From the sequence record MK295203: 64,000 nt of DNA; one strand, 5' to 3'. The notes beneath the pieces are model-generated. The model worked only from the letters and a program-made list of their open reading frames with translations, made no database searches and was not told the DNA's origin. The stretch comes from Escherichia phage vB_EcoM_005. Positions 5,316 through 12,752 of the stretch are shown one piece after another; positions within the stretch are counted from its first letter, which is position 1, and the number at the start of each line of letters is the position of its first letter. Both the position numbers and the translations under genes were made by a program.

Positions 5316-5389
5316 GGCCCTGTAGCTCAATGGTTAGCAGCAGTCCCCTCATAAGGGAAAGGTTACCGGTTCAAATCCGGTCTGGGTCA
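5316..5389 (+). tRNA. tRNA with CAU anticodon (Met or lysidine-modified Ile)
   Basis: ggccctgtagctcaatggtt...ccggttcaaatccgg: acceptor stem, D-loop AATGG, T-loop TTCAAATCC, anticodon loop cuCAUaa; no encoded CCA. Confidence 0.7.
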
Positions 5390-5397
5390 TTAACTAC

Positions 5398-5472
5398 GTC
5401 CCGCTGGTGTAATGGATAGCATACGATCCTTCTAAGTTTGCGGTCCTGGTTCGATCCCAGGGCGGGATACCA
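5398..5472 (+). tRNA. tRNA-Arg (UCU)
   Basis: gtcccgctggtgtaatggatagc...ggttcgatcccagggcgggatacca: acceptor stem pairs, T-loop GGTTCGATCC, anticodon loop cuUCUaa, encoded CCA. Confidence 0.75.
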
Positions 5473-6903: not shown

Positions 6904-6932
6904 GTTTACACCTCCTTTAAACATGATACTAT
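6904..6932 (+). promoter_or_regulatory. T4-type early promoter
   Basis: GTTTACacctcctttaaacatgaTACTATagacctatcaa. Confidence 0.7.
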
Positions 6933-7235: not shown

Positions 7236-7265
7236 GTTTACAACCCTCAGAGGACAGGGTATAAT
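7236..7265 (+). promoter_or_regulatory. T4-type early promoter with hairpin spanning the -10
   Basis: GTTTACaaccctcagaggacagggTATAATgtcctc; inverted repeat gaggaca/tgtcctc flanks TATAAT. Confidence 0.65.
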
Positions 7266-7307
7266 GTCCTCATGGATTATAAATCTTAACCAACTGAAGG
7301 AAATACT

Positions 7308-7901
7308 ATGAACACTTTAAAGAAAATCGTTGAATTCATCCGTTCTAAACTGGGTACTGCAATGGCTCAGAACCTGTCAATCGAAGACCAATACACCAAA
7401 GCTGCTTCTACCCTGATTGATAAAATCACTGAACTCCAGACTGCTCATGTTAAGTCTGTGAATGAAGAAAAACGTATTCGTGCGTTGGCTAATGAAAAAG
7501 ACCAGCTCGCTGCTTCTAAAGAACGTGAAATTCGTAAACTGATTGCCGAAGGCGCTGATGTCCAGGTACATGCTAAACTTGGCCTCCTTTATCGTCGTAC
7601 AGCTACTCAGCTTCGTAAGAAAGCTGATGATTATATCGAAATGCGTAATGAAATTAAACTGAAGGTTAAGGAACTTGATGACTCTCGTCAGGAACTGGCT
7701 GTTAAGCTCGAGTACATCCGTGAAACTCGTAATATGGCTGCCCTTGGTATTGCTACTGCTGATGATGTTGTTGAAATTGCTGCACTGACCAAGATTGATA
7801 TCGAAGACACCCTGATGCGTGTAGAAACGTTTAAAGGCCCACAAGTTGGAATGGATACGACTTCTGCTGATATCGAAGACTACATTAATTCACTTAAGTA
7901 A
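7308..7901 (+). CDS. coiled-coil protein, possibly PspA/IM30-like
   Basis: 197 aa, heptad-rich, charged; weak resemblance to phage-shock protein A architecture. Confidence 0.45.
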
Positions 7902-7906
7902 TGTTA

Positions 7907-7927
7907 CCGGGAGACTTCGGTCTCCCT
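7907..7927 (+). terminator. hairpin, weak terminator
   Basis: gggagacttcggtctccc followed by tattt. Confidence 0.45.
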
Positions 7928-7949
7928 ATTTGGAGGAGAGGAGAATATT

Positions 7950-8486
7950 ATGAGTTTATACGACGACCTGATATCAAATATTGATTGGTTTAAACATAGT
8001 GGTCTTTCACATGAAACTAATGCAGTTCTTTATAGAATTCGCCAAGACCTAGGTTATTCAAACGATTTCTTAAGCAGAACATCTAGCCGTGGGCATACTA
8101 CCAAATTACCCTTTATCTTTGCTTTAGCTGAGGACCTTTCTTTTGCAGATGCTTTAGAAATTATTGACCTTGAATTAGGTATACAACGTGTGGAGTTCGC
8201 TGGGCTACGCTATTCAGTATACTCTTTAAATGAACCAAGCGATTATAAACAGCTTGTTGATGCCGACGATGATTACCATTTAGTATGCTATTTGATGTTA
8301 GAAAATGGTGACCACTTTGGTATGGTCGACCGTCGCCCGAGTTATTCGGATATTAAAAATTACGATAAAGATGAGCTTATTATTTTGGCTAATGAGTATA
8401 CATCAGAGATTCGAAAACAACAACGGAAGCTTAATCGTTTTATTGCTGAATGCCGCGAATACGCTAAAGAGGTTCGTAATGTATAA
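7950..8486 (+). CDS. hypothetical protein (C-terminal FIAEC motif)
   Basis: 178-aa ORF, SD ggagga; ends ...NRFIAECREYAKEVRNV. Confidence 0.5.
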   Translation: MSLYDDLISNIDWFKHSGLSHETNAVLYRIRQDLGYSNDFLSRTSSRGHTTKLPFIFALAEDLSFADALEIIDLELGIQRVEFAGLRYSVYSLNEPSDYKQLVDADDDYHLVCYLMLENGDHFGMVDRRPSYSDIKNYDKDELIILANEYTSEIRKQQRKLNRFIAECREYAKEVRNV

Positions 8487-8832
8487 GCCTAGTAAAACCG
8501 ACCCTGGTTACGCATTAGCAGATTATGATATAGCTATTTCATTATTCCTCGGCATTGCTACTAGTATGGTTGCAGGGATAATTGGATTTCTTGTCGGCGG
8601 GATTATTAATGGTATGCCTCGCCATCCGTTTGAAGATATGAGCCTCGCGTGGATTTGGGTTCCAGCTTTAATAGGATACTTTATCCCAGTGGTCTTTGAT
8701 ATTACCCAAACCAATAAAATAAACAAGCCACGTAAAAAGAGATATGCTTTAGAGATGGCTAATTATAATGAGTATGTAAAACAAACCAAACGTAATGACC
8801 TTGAAACCTTTATTAAGGAATGTAAATCATGA
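8479..8832 (+). CDS. small membrane protein (C-terminal FIKEC motif)
   Basis: ATG overlaps upstream stop; two TM helices; ends ...ETFIKECKS. Confidence 0.5.
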   Translation: MYKPSKTDPGYALADYDIAISLFLGIATSMVAGIIGFLVGGIINGMPRHPFEDMSLAWIWVPALIGYFIPVVFDITQTNKINKPRKKRYALEMANYNEYVKQTKRNDLETFIKECKS

Positions 8833-9119
8833 ATAAAATTGAAATTGAAATCCCTGAATACAACAGCGCGCTGTCTGCAGAAAAGGCTATCTATGACCTG
8901 CTGGGTAAAGTAGACACCATCGAATCCAAATGTGAAGAAATCGCAGATGAATATGGTATTGAATTCAGCACAGGTGATTATGGTTCAGGCCGTACATATT
9001 ATCCTGTCGGTTATGAATGCTCCCAGTGGTTTAAAGATGAAATTGAAAACAACGGTGGTGAAGTTGAAAACGGCGTCGTTACAGTTGGTGCTTGGGTCTC
9101 CTCTTCAGCAATGTGCTAA
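8829..9119 (+). CDS. member 1 of tandem small-protein family (C-terminal GAWVSSSAMC)
   Basis: 96-aa acidic ORF; stop followed by taaGGAA and next start. Confidence 0.55.
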   Translation: MNKIEIEIPEYNSALSAEKAIYDLLGKVDTIESKCEEIADEYGIEFSTGDYGSGRTYYPVGYECSQWFKDEIENNGGEVENGVVTVGAWVSSSAMC

Positions 9120-9128
9120 GGAAACGCT

Positions 9129-9410
9129 ATGATGAATGATTACCGTAAAAATAAAGAACTGGCTGAAGCAGTAAATGATATCCATAAAGCTATTCGTCGT
9201 GCTGAGGAAATTGCAAACAAATATGAGACTCATTTTAATATATACCCTGCTCGCGGTATGGGCGGTGACTATTATTCTCCTGGCGCCTTGAAAGCCGACC
9301 TTGCCCACTGGGAAGAATACGGTGAAGCTCAGTATGCTATTGTAAACCAACATGATTACACTACCAGCCTAGAAAATGGTGGATGGGTGTCCTCTTCTTC
9401 TGAATGTTAA
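9129..9410 (+). CDS. member 2 of tandem small-protein family (C-terminal GGWVSSSSEC)
   Basis: 93 aa; same stop-SD junction tgttaaggaa. Confidence 0.55.
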   Translation: MMNDYRKNKELAEAVNDIHKAIRRAEEIANKYETHFNIYPARGMGGDYYSPGALKADLAHWEEYGEAQYAIVNQHDYTTSLENGGWVSSSSEC

Positions 9411-9419
9411 GGAATTATT

Positions 9420-9617
9420 ATGTCTCGTGAACTAGATTGTGCAATCCGTACTGCAGCCGCAGCTATTGAAAACGTTATCCAGATTTGTAAAGAAGAACGC
9501 GAAGAAGCTGATATCTATATCGATGGCGCTCGTGACCTAGAACGACATATCACGCTTTATAACGGTTGTATTACTATTAGTGGTACTTCCTGGGTATCAT
9601 CCTCTTACGAATGCTAA
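9420..9617 (+). CDS. member 3 of tandem small-protein family (C-terminal TSWVSSSYEC)
   Basis: 65 aa; junction tgctaaggaa. Confidence 0.55.
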   Translation: MSRELDCAIRTAAAAIENVIQICKEEREEADIYIDGARDLERHITLYNGCITISGTSWVSSSYEC

Positions 9618-9626
9618 GGAAATAAA

Positions 9627-9836
9627 ATGACTATTGATGAAATTGAAAAACAAATCCGCGAATTAGTACGTAAAGGCCAGTCCGTGGCTGACGAAACAGG
9701 TCAGCACTTCCACGCTGGAGGCGAAGAATATATTCCAGCTTCTAGTCCGGAATATGATGATTACGAATGGGCCCGTGATGATTACGGTATCCCAGATGGT
9801 GAAGGTTTCTGGTTTACATCCTCTATGTCTTGCTAA
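9627..9836 (+). CDS. member 4 of tandem small-protein family (C-terminal GFWFTSSMSC)
   Basis: 69 aa; junction tgctaaggtg. Confidence 0.55.
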   Translation: MTIDEIEKQIRELVRKGQSVADETGQHFHAGGEEYIPASSPEYDDYEWARDDYGIPDGEGFWFTSSMSC

Positions 9837-9846
9837 GGTGATAAAA

Positions 9847-10071
9847 ATGTCTGATATTAATGAATTAGAAAAAGCGGCACTTGAACTGGCTGCACTGTAT
9901 AAGAAAGTAAAAGATATGGCTTCTGCTCAGGATTTCCGTGTTGAGCTCGATGATTATGACGGTGAAGTTCGTCTCGAAGATTGGCTGAATAGCTCTTGTT
10001 ATGGTGAAGAAGCTGGTCGCACCTTCGTTGCTCAGGCCGATGGTAAAATCTGGTATCCTAGCTCATGCTAA
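9847..10071 (+). CDS. member 5 of tandem small-protein family (C-terminal KIWYPSSC)
   Basis: 74 aa from ATG at 9847; degenerate version of the tail motif. Confidence 0.5.
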   Translation: MSDINELEKAALELAALYKKVKDMASAQDFRVELDDYDGEVRLEDWLNSSCYGEEAGRTFVAQADGKIWYPSSC

Positions 10072-10292
10072 AATTAAAGAAAAGATACATTCGTAAAATA
10101 AATGGTCTTCGCGATTATGCTAAAGGTTGGCCATTAAGTATTATTATGGCTGATAGACACCCGCGTTATAATACTGAGATGACTTATTACAAAAAGTACG
10201 ATTCATATTGTCGGTCTAAAGCAGGTCGTTTAGATGGTTCTTATGAAGACTATTTCGGTAAAAAACCTACCCGTATTTCGTTAGGAAAATAA
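10065..10292 (+). CDS. hypothetical basic protein
   Basis: 75-aa ORF overlapping previous stop (ATGCTAA). Confidence 0.4.
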   Translation: MLKLKKRYIRKINGLRDYAKGWPLSIIMADRHPRYNTEMTYYKKYDSYCRSKAGRLDGSYEDYFGKKPTRISLGK

Positions 10293-10322
10293 TTTAATCA
10301 CACGGATGTGGTAGGAGGACTT

Positions 10323-10652
10323 ATGCATAAAGATTCAGTATTCAAATATCTTTTGAAAACAGATAAAGAATTCTATATGAATGGACAAGCTTTCTTGTTC
10401 GTTCGTGGTAAACGTGAGATGTTTTACAAATGCGACCTCTCAATGCACCATCATATGTATCACACCCATGGTGAGCCTATACTGGGGTTCTCTGGTGACG
10501 AAACCAGACATATAGCTATGTACTACGACCATTTTAAGCTCAATGATTGTGGTGACAACGCTCTGGTCTGGAATCCATCTTGGCGTCGTTGGGATACGGT
10601 AGACAACGATAAATTATTTTTAGAATATTGCAGAAGCGATGTACAACTCTAA
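10323..10652 (+). CDS. hypothetical protein (His/Cys-rich)
   Basis: SD aggagga then ATG; motif CDLSMHHHMYHTHGE suggests metal binding. Confidence 0.5.
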   Translation: MHKDSVFKYLLKTDKEFYMNGQAFLFVRGKREMFYKCDLSMHHHMYHTHGEPILGFSGDETRHIAMYYDHFKLNDCGDNALVWNPSWRRWDTVDNDKLFLEYCRSDVQL

Positions 10653-10695
10653 AAATACGTGTTACTATTACCCTACACAAACATGAGGAGAACAT

Positions 10696-10935
10696 ATGTG
10701 GTATTACGCTCCGATGTCCGATAAGTCTAATGAACCGCTACGCATTACTCGTGCCAGGTTTAAAAAGATTTATGGCTTTGCTTATAAGAAGTCTGATTAC
10801 GGTGTTCGTTTTGAAGATGCCCACTGTATCAATGACCCTTATGCAGAAGAAATTTCTAATGAGATAATTCCTATCATTAAGAATAATTCTGATGATATGT
10901 GGGAATTGCATAACGATTACGTCGCTGAAATTTAA
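10696..10935 (+). CDS. hypothetical protein
   Basis: SD gaggag; 79 aa. Confidence 0.5.
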   Translation: MWYYAPMSDKSNEPLRITRARFKKIYGFAYKKSDYGVRFEDAHCINDPYAEEISNEIIPIIKNNSDDMWELHNDYVAEI

Positions 10936-10954
10936 GTTTACTGAGGAAAATATT

Positions 10955-11818
10955 ATGATGTTAGTTATTGGTTCTCGTGCACTGCACCACGCTGGTCTGA
11001 TTGAAAGTAAGCATATCGAAAATTCTGATTGGGATTTCATTGCCGACCAAGGTTCATGGAACCATTTTAAAGCTCGGATGTTTGGTGCCCATGTTTCTGT
11101 GGATAATCCTGATGTCCAGGCTTTTAAATGCATGTACAACGGTAAAGAAACCTATTTTGAAGCATATATCGTTCGTGCTCTGACTAACGTACGAGAAATT
11201 ACCGGCGAGCTTCAAGACGAAGATTTCACCTCAAGTTATCGTCTCCTGAAATATGCCGAAAATCATATTAAAAAGGACCGTCTTACAGGTTTCTATTGGG
11301 CTACGCCTGATATCTGTCTGGCTATCAAAACCTCTCATCGTTTCCTGAAGAATAATCCTTTCTTCTTGAAAACTATGTCCCACATCAAATACCTTCGTAA
11401 TAAAGGTACCACCTTGAATGAAGAACTCCAGGAAATTATGCTGCAACGTCAAAAAGAAACGTTGAGCTATTCCCATCCTAAATTGGATGTAAACAAATCA
11501 TCGTTCTTTAATGATACCATGGAGAAGTTCGAGGCTTTGCCTGAAGCTATTAAATTGGCTGGTGTGTATGAAGAAACCTGTGTCCTGGCACTAGAACGTT
11601 CACAGGTTCCTAATGACTTCAATATTTCACCATCATTAAGTTTCTATATGGCTCTTGAGAAAGTGTGTACCTCAATCACTTCAGGTTGGTTCCGCACTTA
11701 TGCATGGGAAAACTACCAAGCTGTGGTTAATATGTACAAGACTTTAGGTGAAAGTGACTACATTGAACGATTTAAACGTAATCAACATCTTATTAAACCT
11801 TTCAAAAAGGCTGAGTAA
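10955..11818 (+). CDS. hypothetical protein
   Basis: 287 aa from ATG after actgagg SD; no confident family assignment. Confidence 0.5.
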   Translation: MMLVIGSRALHHAGLIESKHIENSDWDFIADQGSWNHFKARMFGAHVSVDNPDVQAFKCMYNGKETYFEAYIVRALTNVREITGELQDEDFTSSYRLLKYAENHIKKDRLTGFYWATPDICLAIKTSHRFLKNNPFFLKTMSHIKYLRNKGTTLNEELQEIMLQRQKETLSYSHPKLDVNKSSFFNDTMEKFEALPEAIKLAGVYEETCVLALERSQVPNDFNISPSLSFYMALEKVCTSITSGWFRTYAWENYQAVVNMYKTLGESDYIERFKRNQHLIKPFKKAE

Positions 11819-12468
11819 TGGGACGGCCTCTAAAAGATTTAACCGGACAGGTTATAAATGGTATTAAATTTTTATCGGTGGCCTATAAAGCCACCGGATC
11901 GCCAACCAAGTGGCTTTTATTGTGCCATTGCGGTGAAGAATTCGTTACCACCGCCTCTAGAATAAAAACAGGAAAAACAAAATCATGCGGCTGTGAAAGA
12001 TACCATTATTCCTTTATAAAGAATAGGTATACATATTCCTCATATTCTGCTATGATTGCTAGATGTACAGACCCTAAACATAAAGCCTATCCCGCCTACG
12101 GTGGTAATGGTATAGTTGTTTGTGACGAGTGGCTTCCTAAAGGAAAGAAAGGGTATTTAAAATTTGTCGAGGATATGGGCGAGAGACCTAAAGGGACTTC
12201 AATAAATCGAATAGGTTCTGTTAAAAGGTATAGCAAAGAAACTTGTGAGTGGGCTCCATTTACAATGCAATCATTTGACCAAAGAACGCGTCATGATTCA
12301 CCGGGTCCTATTTCAGGAGTTGTATATAGAAAAGATAGAAATAAATGGGTAGCTTCTATAACAGTAGAAGGCGAAGCCATAGGGCTATATTATGGTGATA
12401 CTGAAAGCGAAGCGATAGAGGCTAGAAAACAAGCTGAACTTAAATATTTTGGAAGATTTAAGTCATAA
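11818..12468 (+). CDS. HNH homing endonuclease with C-terminal AP2 DNA-binding domain
   Basis: Cys cluster CHCGEEF...CGC and C-terminal AP2-like GVVYRKDRNKWVASITVEGEAIGLYYGDTESEAIEARKQAELKYFG. Confidence 0.65.
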   Translation: MGRPLKDLTGQVINGIKFLSVAYKATGSPTKWLLLCHCGEEFVTTASRIKTGKTKSCGCERYHYSFIKNRYTYSSYSAMIARCTDPKHKAYPAYGGNGIVVCDEWLPKGKKGYLKFVEDMGERPKGTSINRIGSVKRYSKETCEWAPFTMQSFDQRTRHDSPGPISGVVYRKDRNKWVASITVEGEAIGLYYGDTESEAIEARKQAELKYFGRFKS

Positions 12469-12473
12469 AAGTT

Positions 12474-12502
12474 GTTTACAAGGTCTATAGGTGTGATACT
12501 AT
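12474..12502 (+). promoter_or_regulatory. T4-type early promoter
   Basis: near-identical to the 3428 promoter: aaaagttGTTTACaaggtctataggtgtgaTACTATagacctatcaa. Confidence 0.7.
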
Positions 12503-12539
12503 AGACCTATCAAAACAACAGAGTGAAATGGAGAATAAA

Positions 12540-12752
12540 ATGAAACTTTCTAACCAAGCAATCAACATGTTAAACGAAGTTCGTGCAGCTGGTGCTAAAT
12601 GCCTGATGGTTGACACTCGTGATGGAGACCTTCGTCAAGCATTTGGTGAATTGAAATCTGCTGACCTGGTTAAATGTTCAGTTGGTATTGGTAACGCACT
12701 TCGTGTATCCTTATCTCCTAAAGGTAAAATGTACTTTTTCAACAAAAAGTAA
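12540..12752 (+). CDS. hypothetical protein
   Basis: SD ggaga then ATG; 70 aa. Confidence 0.5.
   Translation: MKLSNQAINMLNEVRAAGAKCLMVDTRDGDLRQAFGELKSADLVKCSVGIGNALRVSLSPKGKMYFFNKK

Follow-up and report, generated by a model that had tools for sequence, protein, structure and literature searches.

In Escherichia phage vB_EcoM_005 (record MK295203), of which a stretch of 64,000 nucleotides was analysed (the window), five consecutive open reading frames (ORFs) at positions 8829-10071 encode small acidic proteins ending in the same short motif. The five ORFs belong to a paralogous phage family of long standing, whose proteins have a long helix at the N-terminus, a small beta unit and, at the C-terminus, an invariant G-x-W-x-S-S-S-x-x-Cys. 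This tail is conserved throughout the family, the genes are under purifying selection, and they keep a conserved position upstream of a gene for a DUF7277/DUF7275 protein that is predicted to adopt a nucleotidyltransferase (NTase) fold. Our favoured reading, which falls slightly short of probable, is a two-part phage module in which a MenT-like enzyme is accompanied by one to six small acidic cognate regulators or inhibitors, with the tail as their shared contact. The reading draws on gene order and predicted fold, from which we infer binding, inhibition or the direction of regulation, and any tRNA substrate.

The small proteins and their C-terminal tail

The genes of the array are as follows.

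8829-9119, + strand: paralog 1 (type A), 96 amino acids (aa), isoelectric point (pI) 4.05, tail GAWVSSSAMC; phrog_899, E=3.4e-23
9129-9410, + strand: paralog 2 (type B), 93 aa, tail GGWVSSSSEC, core motif YPARGMGGDYYSP; phrog_899, E=2.6e-20
9420-9617, + strand: paralog 3 (type C), 65 aa, tail TSWVSSSYEC, minimal form without the YGMGG core; phrog_4882, E=2.4e-36
9627-9836, + strand: paralog 4 (type D), 69 aa, tail GFWFTSSMSC; phrog_899, E=9.3e-13
9847-10071, + strand: paralog 5 (type E), 74 aa, internal DWLNSSC and terminal KIWYPSSC; phrog_899, E=7.4e-10

Five consecutive acidic ORFs of 65-96 aa with a common Cys-ended tail had been proposed from the DNA alone; both the ORFs and the tails, which read W-x-[STP]-S-S-(x-x)-Cys, were confirmed, with pI values ranging from 4.05 to 5.06. 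ORFs 1-4 fit the family pattern exactly (terminal Cys, Trp at -7, Ser at -4 and -3), while ORF5 ends in a shortened W-Y-P-S-S-C and carries DWLNSSC as an extra internal copy of the motif. Upstream, the frame of ORF5 stays open as far as an ATG at 9754, so that a mechanical call gives 105 aa and overlaps ORF4. The ATG at 9847, close to the Shine-Dalgarno (SD) sequence, is supported as the probable start because the gene is annotated there in the closest relative, and orthologs and SD position agree.

Among the 183 family sequences collected, 170 end in Cys and eight carry one extra residue. The Cys-ended members have Trp at -7 in 163 cases and Ser at -4 and -3 in 166 and 165, respectively, so that the tail is deeply conserved, in support of the invariant tail of the original prediction. 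Position -5 is Ser, Ala or Pro and position -9 is Gly; the median pI is 4.46, and the terminal Cys is the sole Cys in 91 of the 170. Tail-intact orthologs of every one of the five types occur in Mosigvirus, Karamvirus, Marfavirus, Moonvirus and Aeromonas phages and in a 366-kb Erwinia phage. Further, a profile search of 1.84 billion cluster representatives returned 168 clusters at E <=1e-3, all of 72-138 aa and nearly all aligning through the final residue. The family consensus consists of a long helix ending in A-E-x-I-A-D-E-x-G, then F-x-F, then A-Y-G-M-G-G-T-Y-x-P, followed by a variable acidic stretch with a second Trp and finally G-G-W-x-S-S-S-x-x-C.

A long helix, F-x-F and YGMGGTYYP make up a conserved core that types A, B and D have in common. 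A hidden Markov model (HMM) built from distant metagenomic members only was scored with and without the tail; ORF2, ORF1 and ORF4 reached 69, 58 and 37 bits with the tail and 51, 45 and 22 bits once it was removed. ORF3 and ORF5, both of which lack the YGMGG loop, score just 3-6 bits, a weak result for the core; outside the helix and tail, ORF3 resembles the core family only weakly. The two appear from their sequences to be minimal forms in which helix and tail have been retained. In PHROGs, ORFs 1, 2, 4 and 5 belong to phrog_899 and ORF3 to phrog_4882, with no function recorded for either; this resource splits the family in two and annotates neither the tail nor the association with a partner gene.

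All five ORFs are under purifying selection and are real genes: the median ratio of nonsynonymous to synonymous change (dN/dS) against orthologs in related phages is 0.23, 0.21, 0.05, 0.25 and 0.15 for ORF1 to ORF5. The codons of the tail vary synonymously among orthologs (TCC/TCT/TCA/TCG/AGT/AGC; TGC/TGT; GTA/GTC/GTG), and this wobble variation, together with the dN/dS values, sustains the proposal that the motif is selected at the protein level. Hypervariable bodies, which had also been suggested, were not found. Averaged per column, ortholog conservation reaches 0.82-0.92 in the bodies and 0.92-0.99 over the final eight residues, and types A, B and D stripped of their tails still match the distant-member HMM. 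The bodies have diverged between paralogs, yet are not hypervariable. Because the tail is the only feature common to all five paralog types, and because the W-x-S-S-x(0-2)-C unit is repeated two or three times in 15 of the 170 Cys-ended members, it seems to behave as a binding-motif-like unit. Orthologs of the ORF5 type with both motif copies are found in Karamvirus, Marfavirus, Moonvirus, Aeromonas and Phapecoctavirus phages.

An AlphaFold2 (AF2) model of ORF1, made from a 24-sequence alignment, has a predicted local distance difference test (pLDDT) of 88.6 and a predicted template modelling score (pTM) of 0.73. A helix spans residues 14-42, alongside a small sheet; within the tail, W-V-S forms part of a strand (88-91), and the chain closes with a short helix. 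The model bears on whether the proteins could be precursors of ribosomally synthesised and post-translationally modified peptides (RiPPs), whose Ser-rich tail with terminal Cys (Ser at -3, Cys at 0, cf. AviCys/lanthionine motifs) would be dehydrated and cyclised. The invariant S-x-x-C-COOH spacing of types A-D would suit such chemistry. The idea is nonetheless highly improbable because the body is a confidently folded domain rather than a leader peptide and because no Lan-type or radical S-adenosylmethionine enzymes occur in the neighbourhoods examined; in addition, type E has S-S-C directly.

The original prediction did not recognise this family, and neither do the resources consulted here. 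Sequence profiles of Pfam, NCBIfam, PADLOC and the PDB gave no matches to the small proteins, a search in BFVD returned uncharacterised phage relatives only, and no paper mentioning DUF7275, DUF7277, phrog_899 or RB69ORF139c was found in the literature. DUF4279 was discarded as the identity of the family, as it was hit in 7 of 84 members only, at E 0.026 or worse, and was judged to be noise.

Two kinds of atypical sequence accompany the family. A divergent branch of ~110-140 aa ends in ...EESAQYGxDYGW[NDG][VIL], with no terminal Cys and with an internal W-E-A-S-G-x-C, and lies within the same arrays (L095 2088-2504 in phiPsa315; L100 574-912; weak matches in L054, L056, L065, L068 and L070). 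The RB69 ortholog of type A (P0038, RB69ORF139c, 71 aa) is cut after the mid-protein Trp and is tail-less; it may be a frameshifted copy.

At the junctions between the genes, the claim of one recurrent stop-SD-start arrangement held in part. Three of the four internal junctions match TAAGGAA-N5-ATG exactly (one of them with TGT, not TGC), while the fourth reads TAAGGTGATAAAAATG. The suggestion that the tcctct codons of the tail pair with the SD sequence was not upheld, as folding of the junctions gives low stability (-2.8 to -8.0 kcal/mol; z -1.06 to +1.67 against shuffles). An SD/anti-SD hairpin as a special feature of the junctions was likewise rejected: minimum free energy folds do pair AGGA with a nearby UCC or UUC, but the pairing partner varies by junction and the energies do not surpass those of shuffles.

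The downstream nucleotidyltransferase-like gene

The candidate partner is a single gene downstream of the array.

10955-11818, + strand: candidate partner gene, DUF7277+DUF7275, predicted Pol-beta-type NTase fold

It lies on the same strand as the array, 883 nt past ORF5, with three ORFs between. A partner-first survey, in which viral contigs were scanned, gave 80 loci with 38-94% identity to the partner. The family HMM matches in 71 of these, nearly always upstream and always on the same strand, and tail-bearing ORFs are visible by eye in several of the remaining loci. By a simple tail pattern, 74 of the 80 loci have at least one tail-bearing ORF upstream on the same strand, in arrays of one to six. 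Among the small ORFs of the partner loci, the pattern is present in 218 of 1090 upstream on the same strand, in 4 of 927 downstream and in 8 of 4373 on the opposite strand. The tail pattern exceeds chance because only the 8 of 4373 opposite-strand small ORFs carry it, against the 218 of 1090 upstream of the partner.

The reverse lookup, starting from distant representatives of the small proteins, found the partner downstream in seven of eight contigs; the eighth ends too early to show the downstream gene. The partner (~300 aa, DUF7277+DUF7275) follows immediately after P0063, P0148 and P0160, and after further small paralogs for P0105, P0141 and P0182. In L010, L012, L099 and L101 it is preceded by tandem arrays that arose independently of one another in context, each with three or four paralogs that carry the tail. 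The arrangement of array plus partner also occurs in Phapecoctavirus, Otagovirus, Lazarusvirus and the 366-kb Erwinia phage, and is present in phAPEC8 (three small genes), phiPsa315, Acinetobacter phage Berthold and Erwinia phage Hallingskeid. Because tail genes sit upstream of it across such different phages, the DUF7277/DUF7275 protein is the likely partner of the small proteins. The original prediction had spoken of a common partner, and the 74 viral loci and seven distant contexts give that partner a concrete candidate.

By sequence, the partner has no relative in the PDB or Pfam besides its two DUFs (Pfam searched at E up to 10), and PADLOC gave no match. Its predicted structure is a bi-lobed NTase fold that can be superposed on MenT structures. 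In fold comparison the best match was the MenT1 toxin with a score of 10.2 (147 residues aligned), followed by ANT(2'') and TglT/MenT3 (both 8.5), MenT4 (7.8), JHP933 (7.4) and LnuA (7.1). Residues G5, S6, D24 and D26 of the Pol-beta NTase motif are invariant in 41 partner sequences, with a spacing of 17 residues in G-[GS]...D-x-[DE] where 9-13 is canonical. Because of these fold matches and invariant residues, the protein is modelled as a nucleotidyltransferase, with a fold closest to the DUF1814/AbiEii/MenT toxins, which lengthen tRNAs at the 3' end, and no sequence-level membership among them. Homologs number 1717 database entries at E <1e-5, and the gene is found in 732 of 50,697 phage records but in only 3 of the 72,556 from plasmids, with a phage range that includes T4-like, phAPEC8-like, Otagovirus and jumbo phages.

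An enzyme of this kind raises the question of whether the small proteins are its substrates rather than its regulators. The NTase would then nucleotidylylate the tail serines or cysteine and switch paralogous effectors on or off. The conserved partner gene with its predicted NTase fold and the invariant, hydroxyl-rich S-S-S beside the terminal Cys are in keeping with this, and a shared tail on many paralogs is easier to reconcile with one enzyme acting on many substrates than with many inhibitors of one enzyme. However, the closest structural relatives of the partner modify tRNA 3' ends or small molecules rather than proteins, the terminal spacing of type E differs (SSC), and internal copies of the motif exist. 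By analogy with known protein-modifying NTases, we consider this role conceivable and rather unlikely. Its most specific form is doubtful to a like degree: the S-S-S-x-x-Cys tail would be a covalent acceptor, nucleotidylylated by the adjacent MenT-like enzyme and possibly subject to chemistry at the terminal Cys thereafter. If so, the array would be a set of enzyme-armed phage effectors and the enzyme a protein-modifying branch of a toxin family so far tRNA-directed.

The partner also has two invariant cysteines, C242 and C271. The conserved Cys of the tails could be a metal or redox ligand, with the tails of several copies, possibly together with the partner cysteines, forming a shared metal site or a disulfide-linked hetero-oligomer. 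The 91 members with the terminal Cys as their only Cys and those with two or three W-x-S-S-x-C units would accord with such a site. This is a very unlikely explanation, as no single protein contains a His/Cys cluster and the proteins are presumably cytoplasmic and reduced.

In the isolate studied here, the partner gene has a private in-frame deletion of 102 nt (34 codons) with its junction at ~11521 (11495-11550). The 34 lost residues include a nearly invariant Y-x-x-D-H-D-x-x-H ... P-A-Y stretch, and the deleted bases are retained in 25 of the 25 best-scoring phage records; the enzyme of this isolate is probably impaired. All five small genes are intact. Directly after the partner gene lies an HNH homing-endonuclease ORF (11818-12468; phrog_374, E=1e-61), whose ATG overlaps the partner stop. 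The HNH insertion (window 11764-12473) is absent from the closest relative, and the last ~55 nt of the partner gene are recoded beside it, as expected from homing with co-conversion.

Intact small genes next to an NTase gene that has lost 34 conserved codons could mean that the small proteins have targets in the host and that the NTase plays no part in their action; they might, for example, be acidic decoys, nucleic-acid mimics or anti-defence proteins whose tail is read by a host factor. Shared regulation within an early accessory region would in that case be all that the synteny reflects. The strongly acidic character of the proteins, the location of the array within the hyperplastic e-tRNA early region of a T4-like genome and the frequency of unrelated intervening ORFs point the same way. 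However, the deletion is private and relatives at 97-99% identity keep the full-length gene; because the change is recent, it says little and does not discriminate between the models. The pairing is kept across unrelated phage backbones with wholly different surrounding genes, tail ORFs are all but absent downstream and on the opposite strand, and searches in PADLOC, Pfam and the PDB linked the small proteins to no known anti-defence protein. Collectively, we regard action on host targets alone as unlikely.

A proposed two-part module

In the module that we favour, the small proteins would act with the downstream DUF7277/DUF7275 NTase as cognate binding partners, be it as inhibitors, regulators or specificity subunits. 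The conserved tail would contact the enzyme, for example by filling its acceptor site or active-site cleft, and the diverged bodies might tune affinity, timing or target choice.

Various observations weigh against this proposal. The median distance from the last tail ORF to the partner is 333 nt, often with unrelated ORFs between, and in the window it reaches 883 nt. No natural fusion of a small protein with the NTase was present among 120 partner homologs. The partner has no DUF1814/AbiEii HMM match (Pfam, E up to 10), and it also resembles the small-molecule NTases ANT(2'') and LnuA, so that the fold does not fix the substrate. The small proteins have no similarity to MenA1 in sequence or fold. 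Trp and the next two residues are modelled in a beta strand (AF2), and part of the 'tail' may therefore be structural. Further, one inhibitor is enough for one enzyme, and simple neutralisation leaves arrays of two to six paralogs unexplained.

The pairing is also not universal. One lineage of gammaproteobacterial phages has the partner without recognisable small proteins (L074, L075, L077, L091), and Streptomyces and Gordonia phages have a shorter enzyme with no tail-bearing ORF upstream. Covariation of the partner's SGWFR motif (W278) with the tails was set aside: the W-to-R lineage has no small ORFs, but L082 combines R with six tail ORFs. At the loci of the gammaproteobacterial-phage lineage, the partner has KICTSITSGRFR where the usual sequence is KVCTSITSGWFR, and a 179-aa ORF lies directly upstream instead. 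Streptomyces phage Annadreamy (L096 4130-4468) and Gordonia phage Cucurbita (L097 4100-4390) contain a conserved ~100-aa ORF whose start overlaps the NTase stop and which may be an alternative partner.

Genomic setting and known systems

The source genome of the window is a Dhakavirus (T4-like, Straboviridae). Bases 8000-11000 have 97.9% identity to Salmonella phage vB_SalM_ABTNLsp5, and 240 phage records match. The array occupies an accessory stretch bounded by a homolog of T4 e.6 (7308-7901) and by nudE/e, which is the 'e-tRNA' region of T4. The syntenic e-tRNA region of T4, to which the scan of T4 was confined, contains neither the small genes nor the partner. The following features surround the array.

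5316-5472: tRNA-Met and tRNA-Arg genes, 3.4 kb upstream of the array
7237-7265, + strand: best sigma-70-like promoter match, TTTACA-17-TATAAT, 11/12; consensus match only
10065-10935, + strand: three small ORFs between array and partner, of 75, 114 and 79 aa; phrog_7065, 9796 and 3723

The three intervening ORFs are not members of the tail family and belong to the same gene string as the array and the partner. The promoter-like site at 7237-7265 is the strongest sigma-70-like site and stands ahead of the e.6 homolog and the co-oriented gene string. No + strand terminator was predicted from 7265 to 12700. Because the stop-SD-start junctions are tight and no terminator is predicted in the gene string, the packing of these genes is operon-like. 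Separately, a promoter-like TTTACA-16-TACTAT with an upstream TG is present in two copies, at 6905-6932 and 12475-12502, and positions 12494-12542 also match a second site in the relative's genome (L001 4927-4973, 94%).

A link to RNA repair, through Rnl1, PNK, PTH2 or adjacent tRNA genes, was considered and rejected, as RNA ligase or PNK genes lie within 4 kb in 3 of the 80 loci and tRNA genes in 6 of the 80. Genes for PTH2 and peptide deformylase are found in two unrelated module contigs (L011 4918-5334; L101 1-125 and 773-1213), a hint at a translation-related setting from a sample too small to weigh.

The module is common, and several of the phages that carry it are in therapeutic use or have been proposed for it; its absence from the syntenic e-tRNA region of T4 may explain why it has not been studied. 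If the two-part reading is right, phages carry an NTase of the MenT/AbiEii type, whose members are known from bacteria as toxins and as abortive-infection effectors disabling tRNAs, together with a dedicated and expandable set of regulators that have a new fold and an unusual, invariant cysteine motif at the C-terminus. This would tie phage accessory genes to the conflict over tRNA and translation in a way open to experiment, with a defined peptide motif to mutate.

Several known systems invite comparison. The DUF1814 toxins of AbiEi/AbiEii, MenA3/MenT3 and MenA4/MenT4 are paired with COG5340 antitoxins; these antitoxins are large proteins that combine winged helix-turn-helix and kinase-like parts, and have no equivalent in the phage module. 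In HepT-MntA (a type VII toxin-antitoxin system) and GlnD-PII, the NTase nucleotidylylates its small partner on a hydroxyl residue. The phage loci likewise combine an NTase gene with genes for small proteins that have a conserved hydroxyl-bearing motif; the likeness is one of analogy only, as the phage small proteins have no HEPN or PII homology. RlaP and the CCA-adding NTases resemble the partner in that they are phage-encoded Pol-beta NTases, and a few module loci adjoin RNA ligase, PNK, PTH2 or tRNA genes. However, the phage partner has no PF10127 match, and the loci with RNA ligase or PNK within 4 kb are the three mentioned above only.

MenA1-MenT1 of Mycobacterium tuberculosis, whose toxin extends tRNAs, offers a further parallel and is the precedent for the layout in the favoured reading. 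The 68-aa antitoxin MenA1 has a long helix at its centre; its gene precedes that of MenT1, whose active site the antitoxin blocks (PMC10435456). The phage module differs in being phage-borne, whereas MenAT1 is chromosomal, and in its arrays of one to six paralogs with an invariant W-x-S-S-S-x-x-Cys, whereas the C-terminus of MenA1 is dispensable. The phage partner, further, has no DUF1814 HMM match. What the two systems have in common is the presence of one or more short ORFs upstream of a MenT-like NTase gene.

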